From the IMG/VR virus record IMGVR_UViG_2531839374_000016: 17,636 nucleotides of DNA. The stretch is one strand, 5' to 3'. The DNA comes from a virus (taxonomy: Duplodnaviria; Heunggongvirae; Uroviricota; Caudoviricetes). Below the pieces are notes generated by a model that made no database searches, was not told where the DNA came from, and saw only the letters and a list, made by a program, of their open reading frames with translations. A program made the translations under genes and the position numbers. The stretch's first letter is position 1. Every line of letters starts with the position of its first letter. This document shows, piece after piece, positions 6,638-7,335 of this stretch.

Positions 6638-7335
6638 TGCAGGATATCCGGCAGGAAACACTGAATGAATGCACCCGTGCGGAGCAGTCGGCCAGCGTGG
6701 TGCTCTGGGAAATCGACCTGACAGAGGTCGGTGGAGAACGTTATTTTTCTGTAATGAGCAGAACGAAAAAGGTGAGCCGGTCACCTGGCAGGGGCGACAG
6801 TATCAGCCGTATCCCATTCAGGGGGAGTGGTTTTGAACTGAATGGCAAAGGCACCAGTACGCGCCCCACGCTGACGGTTTCTAACCTGTACGGTATGGTC
6901 GCCGGGATGGCGGAAGATCTGCAGAGTCTGGTCGGCGGAACGGTGGTCCGGCGTAAGGTTTACGCCCGTTTTCTGGATGCGGTGAACTTCGTCAACGGAA
7001 ACAGTGACGCCGATCCGGAGCAGGAGGTGATCAGCCGCTGGCGCATCGAGCAGTGCAGCGAACTGAGCGCGGTCAGTGCCTCTTTTGTGCTGGCCACACC
7101 AACGGAGACGGATGGCGCGGTTTTCCCGGGGCGTATCATGCTGGCGAATACCTGTATGTGGACCTACCGTTCTGATGAGTGTGGTTACACGGGCAGGGCA
7201 GTGGCTGACGAGTTCGACAAACCAACGACGGATATCCGGAAGGACAAATGCAGCAAGTGTATGCGCGGGTGTGAGTTGCGCAACAATACCGGTAATTTCG
7301 GCGGTTTCCTTTCCATCAATAAACTTTCTCAGTAA
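6637..7335 (+). CDS. L: minor tail protein L (tail tip, Cys-rich C-terminus)
   Basis: 232 aa, the same length as lambda gpL; N-terminal MQDIRQETLNECTRAEQSASVVLWEIDLTEVGGERYF and C-terminal ...CSKCMRGCELRNNTGNFGGFLSINKLSQ closely match lambda gpL. Residues ~37-63 differ because a short stretch is read in a shifted frame (see findings). Confidence 0.9.
   Translation: MQDIRQETLNECTRAEQSASVVLWEIDLTEVGGERYFSVMSRTKKVSRSPGRGDSISRIPFRGSGFELNGKGTSTRPTLTVSNLYGMVAGMAEDLQSLVGGTVVRRKVYARFLDAVNFVNGNSDADPEQEVISRWRIEQCSELSAVSASFVLATPTETDGAVFPGRIMLANTCMWTYRSDECGYTGRAVADEFDKPTTDIRKDKCSKCMRGCELRNNTGNFGGFLSINKLSQ

Follow-up and report, generated by a model that had tools for sequence, protein, structure and literature searches.

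Gene L of a lambda-type tail module raises the question of how a gene can keep a full-length open reading frame while about 26 codons in its interior are read out of frame, and whether the two homopolymer runs that bound those codons record a pair of inherited mutations or a pair of errors. The window that we analyzed, which is the whole stretch of DNA with a length of 17,636 nucleotides, carries L in the gene order H-M-L-K-I-J, the position of L in the lambda tail-tip cluster, as established from open reading frames, Pfam labels, and tblastn. The features of L on which the argument turns are these.

6637..7335, plus strand: gene L, encoding a homologue of lambda gpL, the tail-tip hub protein, in 232 codons, with a frame that is open but scrambled inside (open reading frame list and translation).
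6744..6748, plus strand: T5 run, which has lost one nucleotide from an ancestral T6 and so puts reading in the +1 frame from codon 38 (alignment, run-length count, and gap list).
6748..6825, plus strand: the 26 misread codons, residues 38-63, giving SVMSRTKKVSRSPGRGDSISRIPFRG in place of FCNEQNEKGEPVTWQGRQYQPYPIQG.
6821..6825, plus strand: G5 run, which has gained one nucleotide over an ancestral G4 and so brings the ancestral frame back from codon 64 (alignment, gap list, and run-length count).
6901, plus strand: A-to-G substitution (T89A), specific to this lineage and common to all T5 alleles of this prophage, including a T5/G4 contig (variable-column table).

Direct reading of the sequence placed the T5 and G5 runs exactly where the original prediction had them, on either side of an out-of-frame stretch. 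Across this stretch the 232-residue L product reads ...GGERYF-SVMSRTKKVSRSPGRGDSISRIPFRG-SGFELNGK..., and translation of the frame from 6639 (-1 relative to L) gives ...FFCNEQNEKGEPVTWQGRQYQPYPIQGEWF*, which in alignment is identical to residues 37-63 of lambda gpL and is the peptide that the prediction had given for lambda at this position. On sequence grounds, 26 consecutive lambda-identical residues in an alternative frame cannot have arisen by chance. Length is preserved as predicted, and 22 of the 26 residues encoded by codons 38-63 are changed, with K45, G53, P60, and G63 coinciding with the ancestral residues in the protein alignment. The G insertion lies 77 bases downstream of the T deletion and its run sits five codons ahead of the stop codon exposed by the T deletion alone; no stop codon occurs between the two indels, leaving the 232-aa open reading frame whole. 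A T5/G4 gene produces 67 residues, as in the open reading frame at 856-1059 of an IMG/VR contig considered below (L011), and a T6/G5 gene would produce 66. Public collections already list the exact scrambled protein, named “phage minor tail protein L,” under WP_004983956.1.

Comparison with intact relatives set the direction of the change. The window L gene shares 90.7% DNA identity with lambda L and 99.4-99.6% with L of the closest prophages in five ipaH-carrying E. coli genomes, including CFSAN029787, O121 201805972, FDAARGOS_943, and VL46, and in each genome the matching prophage carries the ipaH effector gene. Run-length counts gave T6/G4 for lambda and all five nearest E. coli relatives examined, and a nucleotide alignment of the window with lambda and three E. 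coli prophage L genes contained one missing T, one extra G, and no other gap. Besides the two indels, genes M-L (1028 bases) differ from the nearest relatives at about 1-3 bases, position 6901 included, and the DNA between the indels is identical to that of the intact relatives CFSAN029787 and O121 201805972. Because lambda and the E. coli relatives are all T6/G4, these comparisons indicate that T5/G5 is the derived state. The T run (-1) and the G run (+1) thus carry indels of opposite sign, neither a multiple of three in length, within a frame that outgroups define, and the compensating deletion and insertion anticipated from the window alone are borne out by alignment with lambda and E. coli L genes.

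The L frame is contiguous in lambda, in 135 phage records, and in about 4100 E. coli genomes. Among phages, 5426 E. coli genomes, species-representative genomes, IMG/VR, and JGI metagenomes, we found no ortholog group with the annotated frame besides the same Shigella allele. This distribution bears on the idea that the ancestral protein is still made from the window by a -1 ribosomal or transcriptional slip on U5 and a +1 slip on G5. P-site re-pairing is possible in principle at both runs (UUU to UUU at -1 and GGG to GGG at +1), but the T run lacks a canonical X XXY YYZ heptamer, and two independent low-efficiency slips would be needed in each molecule. At spontaneous frameshifting rates, the yield from two slips would be negligible. 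Furthermore, relatives encode the protein contiguously, and the arrangement is derived and restricted to one lineage rather than conserved; programmed recoding was rejected on these grounds, and we attach practically no likelihood to any recoding at this locus.

The T5/G5 allele was found in the following records.

AMGB01000042.1, from GCA_000296305.1 (L006): T5/G5, 100% identity across 17,335 bases; the record opens with the 17,636 bases of the window.
AFGC01000023.1, Shigella boydii 3594-74 (L005): T5/G5, 46 mismatches over 16.7 kb against the window, plus extra indels of its own, one in a G run of Z and one in an A run of H.
Independent Logan re-assembly from SRR058486, the run of GCA_000211955.2 (L007): T5/G5, 100% identical to L005.
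NGWE01000264.1, S. flexneri GCA_002174615.1, a 5'-truncated copy (L010): T5/G5, 31 mismatches in 3.8 kb.

T5/G5 is therefore present in three distinguishable Shigella strains and four assemblies from at least two separate assembly projects, and the record of WP_004983956.1 names both Shigella boydii 3594-74 and Shigella flexneri. Because the allele is common to these strains and assemblies, we interpret it as an inherited mutation pair and not as a consensus error.

The opposing interpretation, that homopolymer miscalls (T6 read as T5 and G4 as G5) were carried into the deposited contigs, is not without a basis. Both sites are homopolymeric, and older Shigella drafts presumably date from the era of homopolymer-error-prone platforms; a literature search for the sequencing platform of strain 3594-74 found nothing. 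The first base of the Logan contig corresponds to window position 5391, within the A8 run (5390-5397), and a start there may point to heterogeneous reads at that homopolymer. Public assemblies also contain many truncated L products that stem from homopolymer indels: a protein search with the scrambled peptide returned 27 clusters of truncated products of about 67 residues, caused by deletions at the T run or a nearby A run, in what is an incomplete census, as this search missed the cluster of the T5/G5 protein itself (P0001/P0002). Many of these products come from noisy assemblies, clearly so for some clusters with several indels per gene (P0012 and P0028). In addition, five tail genes are frameshifted in a prophage copy at the edge of one E. 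coli record: in CFSAN029787, a second copy that opens the chromosome record (L016, NZ_CP011416.1 1-10218) carries frameshift annotations in G, H, M, L, and K. This copy was the only one of 4135 E. coli records in which T5 was the best match, and its T5 looks like poor consensus at a record end, as opposed to a natural T5 allele.

Against miscalling stands the occurrence of the same two changes in each of the strains, assemblies, and projects above, since under miscalling two independent errors would have had to arise identically more than once and, in addition, to restore the frame. The remainder of the window likewise speaks against it. Over 12.9 kb, only three simple 1-nt indels separate the window from its E. 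coli relatives, at 3057, 6744, and 6821; the one at 3057 lies outside any homopolymer, so that the L pair accounts for all homopolymer indels in this block. Considering the shared allele and this background, we judge an assembly error to be very unlikely.

Each half of the pair was also surveyed separately. G5 was present in none of 4345 L copies from 3283 complete E. coli genomes (3294 records), was also absent from IMG/VR and JGI metagenome contigs, and was seen only on a T5 background. T5 was not found in the species-representative genome collection. IMG/VR contained five T5 contigs, four of which were confirmed as T5/G4, with L split at residue 37 in all five. In three other lambda-like prophage contigs among the IMG/VR records (L012, 7758-8452; L013, 8652-9346; L015, 1-281), the T6-to-T5 change in L is the only visible lesion and the tail modules are otherwise intact. 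Their T5 may reflect a hot spot where the deletion recurs, dissemination through gene conversion, or a miscall made repeatedly.

The surroundings of L describe the element in which the pair has been inherited. The window holds a lambda-type tail block of Z, U, V, G, T, H, M, L, K, I, J, lom, and stf, in which the tail genes other than T and the scrambled L are full length, and no head genes were present upstream of Z in the window. The following features bound or interrupt this block.

1-501, minus strand: IS110-type transposase gene, forming the left bound upstream of Z, where head genes are absent.
2967-3295, plus strand: gene T, for tail assembly, with an uncompensated 1-nt deletion at 3056/3057.
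About 14161-14165: stf/tfa junction deletion of 246 nt relative to the E. coli FDAARGOS_943 prophage, leaving stf without its 3' end and the DUF4376 (tfa-like) gene after it without its 5' end, with a 4-base overlap at the junction.
14816-16567, minus strand: intact gene for an ipaH-type T3SS effector (LRR_TTSS and NEL domains), located beyond the tail fibre genes.
17133-17636, plus strand: IS1, forming the right bound beyond ipaH.

The deletion in T reads GGTGAG^GGGGCG in the window against GGTGAGTGGGGCG in relatives and leaves residues 1-30 and 32-109 in different frames. Because it is common to S. boydii 3594-74 and lies outside a homopolymer, it is probably a real mutation that would inactivate the G/GT chaperone system. 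As a lesion without compensation, it marks the tail module as decaying. GGGAAAG is the lambda G-T slip site. The end of gene G at 2940-2960 in the window reads CCGGAAAAGTCCTGA, without this site; since the intact E. coli relative has the identical sequence, the missing site is not a lesion. In S. boydii 3594-74, Z and the tape measure gene are broken by two further homopolymer changes (G6 to G5 in Z and A8 to A7 in H; positions 4143-4723 and 8755-8761 of L005), and an IS66 insertion lies upstream.

Collinearity between the window and the S. boydii copy extends across the ipaH-IS1 junction and indicates that the locus descended vertically at a single chromosomal site. The arrangement of tail module, lom, stf, and ipaHd resembles that of the ipaH prophages of E. 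coli CFSAN029787, FDAARGOS_943, VL46, and others, at 98-99% identity. The prophage copies of CFSAN029787 (L002) and VL46 (L009) keep their head genes and an intact T and L, whereas the Shigella copy has lost the head genes, has acquired IS elements, and carries the lesions in T and L and the stf/tfa deletion. Judged by this gene content, the prophage is an ipaH-carrying, lambda-like remnant of the Shigella chromosome that would no longer form particles.

Having placed the pair in a defective prophage, we asked what it would do to the protein. Window L remains a full-length match to its family, PF05100 Phage_tail_L (cut-off, 25 bits; profile positions 1-206 covered), with a score of 267.6 bits against 328.1 for the intact closest relative, a loss of about 60 bits. 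A phmmer comparison with solved gpL likewise gave 430.7 bits for the scrambled protein and 499.6 for the intact one. The lambda tail has been solved by cryo-EM; in gpL, residues 1-166 make up an HDI beta-sandwich domain of the last tail ring, and residues 154-232 form an iron-sulfur domain in which C173, C182, C205, and C212 bind a [4Fe-4S] cluster (PMC10721106). All four cysteines are invariant columns in our alignment and are kept in window L, which also resembles lambda gpL (PDB 8IYK, 8IYL, 8K35, 8XCG, and 9E7M; PF05100) in its length of 232 aa and its place in the M-L-K-I-J order. Over the whole length the two proteins share 83% identity, and outside residues 38-63 nearly all differences are scattered substitutions.

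Unlike in lambda gpL, residues 38-63 of the HDI domain are frame-shifted in the window, and the part replaced is a conserved one. The lambda sequence P-V-T-W-Q-G-R-Q-Y-Q-P-Y-P is conserved in the Pseudomonas F2 pyocin hub as P-I-H-W-Q-G-N-A-Y-Q-A-W-P, and the motif P-V/I-x-W-Q-G-x-x-Y-Q-x-x-P is common to the F2-pyocin BHP and, in part, to two distant hub proteins. The core of the motif that we took as the mark of an intact N-terminal HDI domain, W-Q-G-x-x-Y-Q-x-x-P at residues 51-60, is absent from window L, where only G53 and P60 coincide. W51, Y56, and Y59 are lost, so that three of four aromatic residues in the stretch are gone, and the net charge of the stretch, read from the sequences, moves from -1 to +6. 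With these changes, scrambled gpL is unlikely to fold or assemble normally. Since the conserved motif (W51 and Y56) is replaced and about 60 bits of Pfam score are lost, L is probably a hidden pseudogene, which RefSeq nonetheless lists as an intact gene.

The order in which the two mutations arose is suggested by a single contig. The IMG/VR record IMGVR_UViG_2526164619_000012 (L011, 856-1356) is 99.7% identical to the window and has T5 and 6901G but G4. Because it combines T5/G4 with the lineage-specific 6901G, this one candidate allele may be an intermediate, making it likely that the deletion came first and the insertion followed in a descendant. The A run at 5390-5397 complicates this order: it is A8 in the window and the E. 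coli relatives, and A7 in L011 and in S. boydii 3594-74, which has G5. L011 thus shares A7 with the S. boydii copy yet has G4, so one of the homopolymer changes must have arisen more than once, been reverted, or been mis-called, and the proposed order is weaker for it. The L011 contig is also rearranged: its L gene breaks off at window position 7138 and continues into an inverted segment of H.

Taken together, we propose that opposite single-base slippage in two short homopolymers would have changed T6 to T5 and, 77 bases downstream, G4 to G5. Either mutation alone would truncate gpL at 66-67 residues, and the two together would hold the 232-codon frame open while converting residues 38-63 of the conserved N-terminal HDI domain to an unrelated, strongly basic peptide. 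The T deletion likely came first and the G insertion after it, and the pair would then have been passed on vertically in a Shigella ipaH prophage unable to make particles. The G insertion may have been fixed either by chance or by selection for a reopened frame while the phage was viable. We hold with reasonable confidence that this is a real, vertically inherited slippage pair whose product is most likely a non-working tail-tip protein, leaving L a hidden pseudogene.

To gauge the contribution of chance, ancestral L was restored and three random single-base indels were placed in the 12.9-kb block at sites that were either uniform or homopolymer-weighted. An opposite-sign pair that preserves the open reading frame arose in 0.5-1.2% of simulations, a figure of about 1% that is post hoc because the window was chosen for its oddness. 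Such a low chance may suggest selection for a reopened frame or clustered mutagenesis, and would imply that the pair is not purely neutral; yet selection would have little to work with in a conserved segment scrambled within a dead prophage.

The selective alternative holds that the T deletion broke L in a viable phage or prophage and that the G insertion was favored as an intragenic suppressor giving an at least partly working gpL, with residues 38-63 tolerating replacement. The rarity of such pairs in the simulations would fit this scenario, as would the finding that G5 never occurs without T5, the full length of the other tail genes except T in the window, and the untouched C-terminal domain with its four cluster-binding cysteines. 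However, the residues lost are those best conserved with the Pseudomonas F2 pyocin hub (W51, Y56, and flanking prolines), at a cost of 60-69 bits across the two comparisons, and the altered charge and missing aromatics point the same way. The identity of the inter-indel DNA to that of the nearest intact relatives leaves no sign of later adaptation, as no substitution within the segment hints at it. The allele was also confined to one chromosomal locus of related Shigella, with no sign of horizontal spread, and the simulation figure counts for less for being post hoc. Weighing these points, we regard a selected suppressor as unlikely, and it appears improbable that scrambled gpL still assembles a working tail tip thanks to a naturally selected G insertion fixed while the phage was viable.

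The reading we prefer, a slippage pair in a decaying gene, belongs to a familiar class of events. Crick et al. reportedly obtained an equivalent kind of pair in 1961 as plus and minus intragenic suppressors of phage T4 rIIB. Compensatory frameshifting mutation pairs have since been surveyed in animals (2022, PMC8935012) and in RNA virus genomes (Park and Hahn 2021, PMC8127213), and such pairs inflate protein divergence while leaving the DNA nearly unchanged (PMC8935012, PMC8127213). The window pair resembles them in its nearby opposite-sign indels, its restored frame, and the radically different peptide between, and it illustrates the warning of Park and Hahn, with 90% protein identity but 99.6% DNA identity to its relatives. 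Unlike the surveyed pairs, the window pair alters a conserved stretch of its protein, in a gene that belongs to an already defective prophage. From these differences, the window pair may represent decay rather than protein evolution, and a working product is unlikely. A compensated double frameshift is a known kind of event, and this one brings no new mechanism or system.

These findings have consequences for how such prophages are read. Due to the restored frame, L is annotated as intact (WP_004983956.1) and frameshift-based pseudogene detection misses it, and comparison at the protein level overstates how far L has diverged. T5/G5 provides a clean marker for one Shigella ipaH prophage lineage. 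Should the T5/G4 contig prove to be a true intermediate, this locus would offer a small natural example of a stepwise frameshift followed by compensation. Finally, if scrambled gpL does work, residues 38-63 of the hub HDI domain would tolerate wholesale exchange for an unrelated basic peptide.
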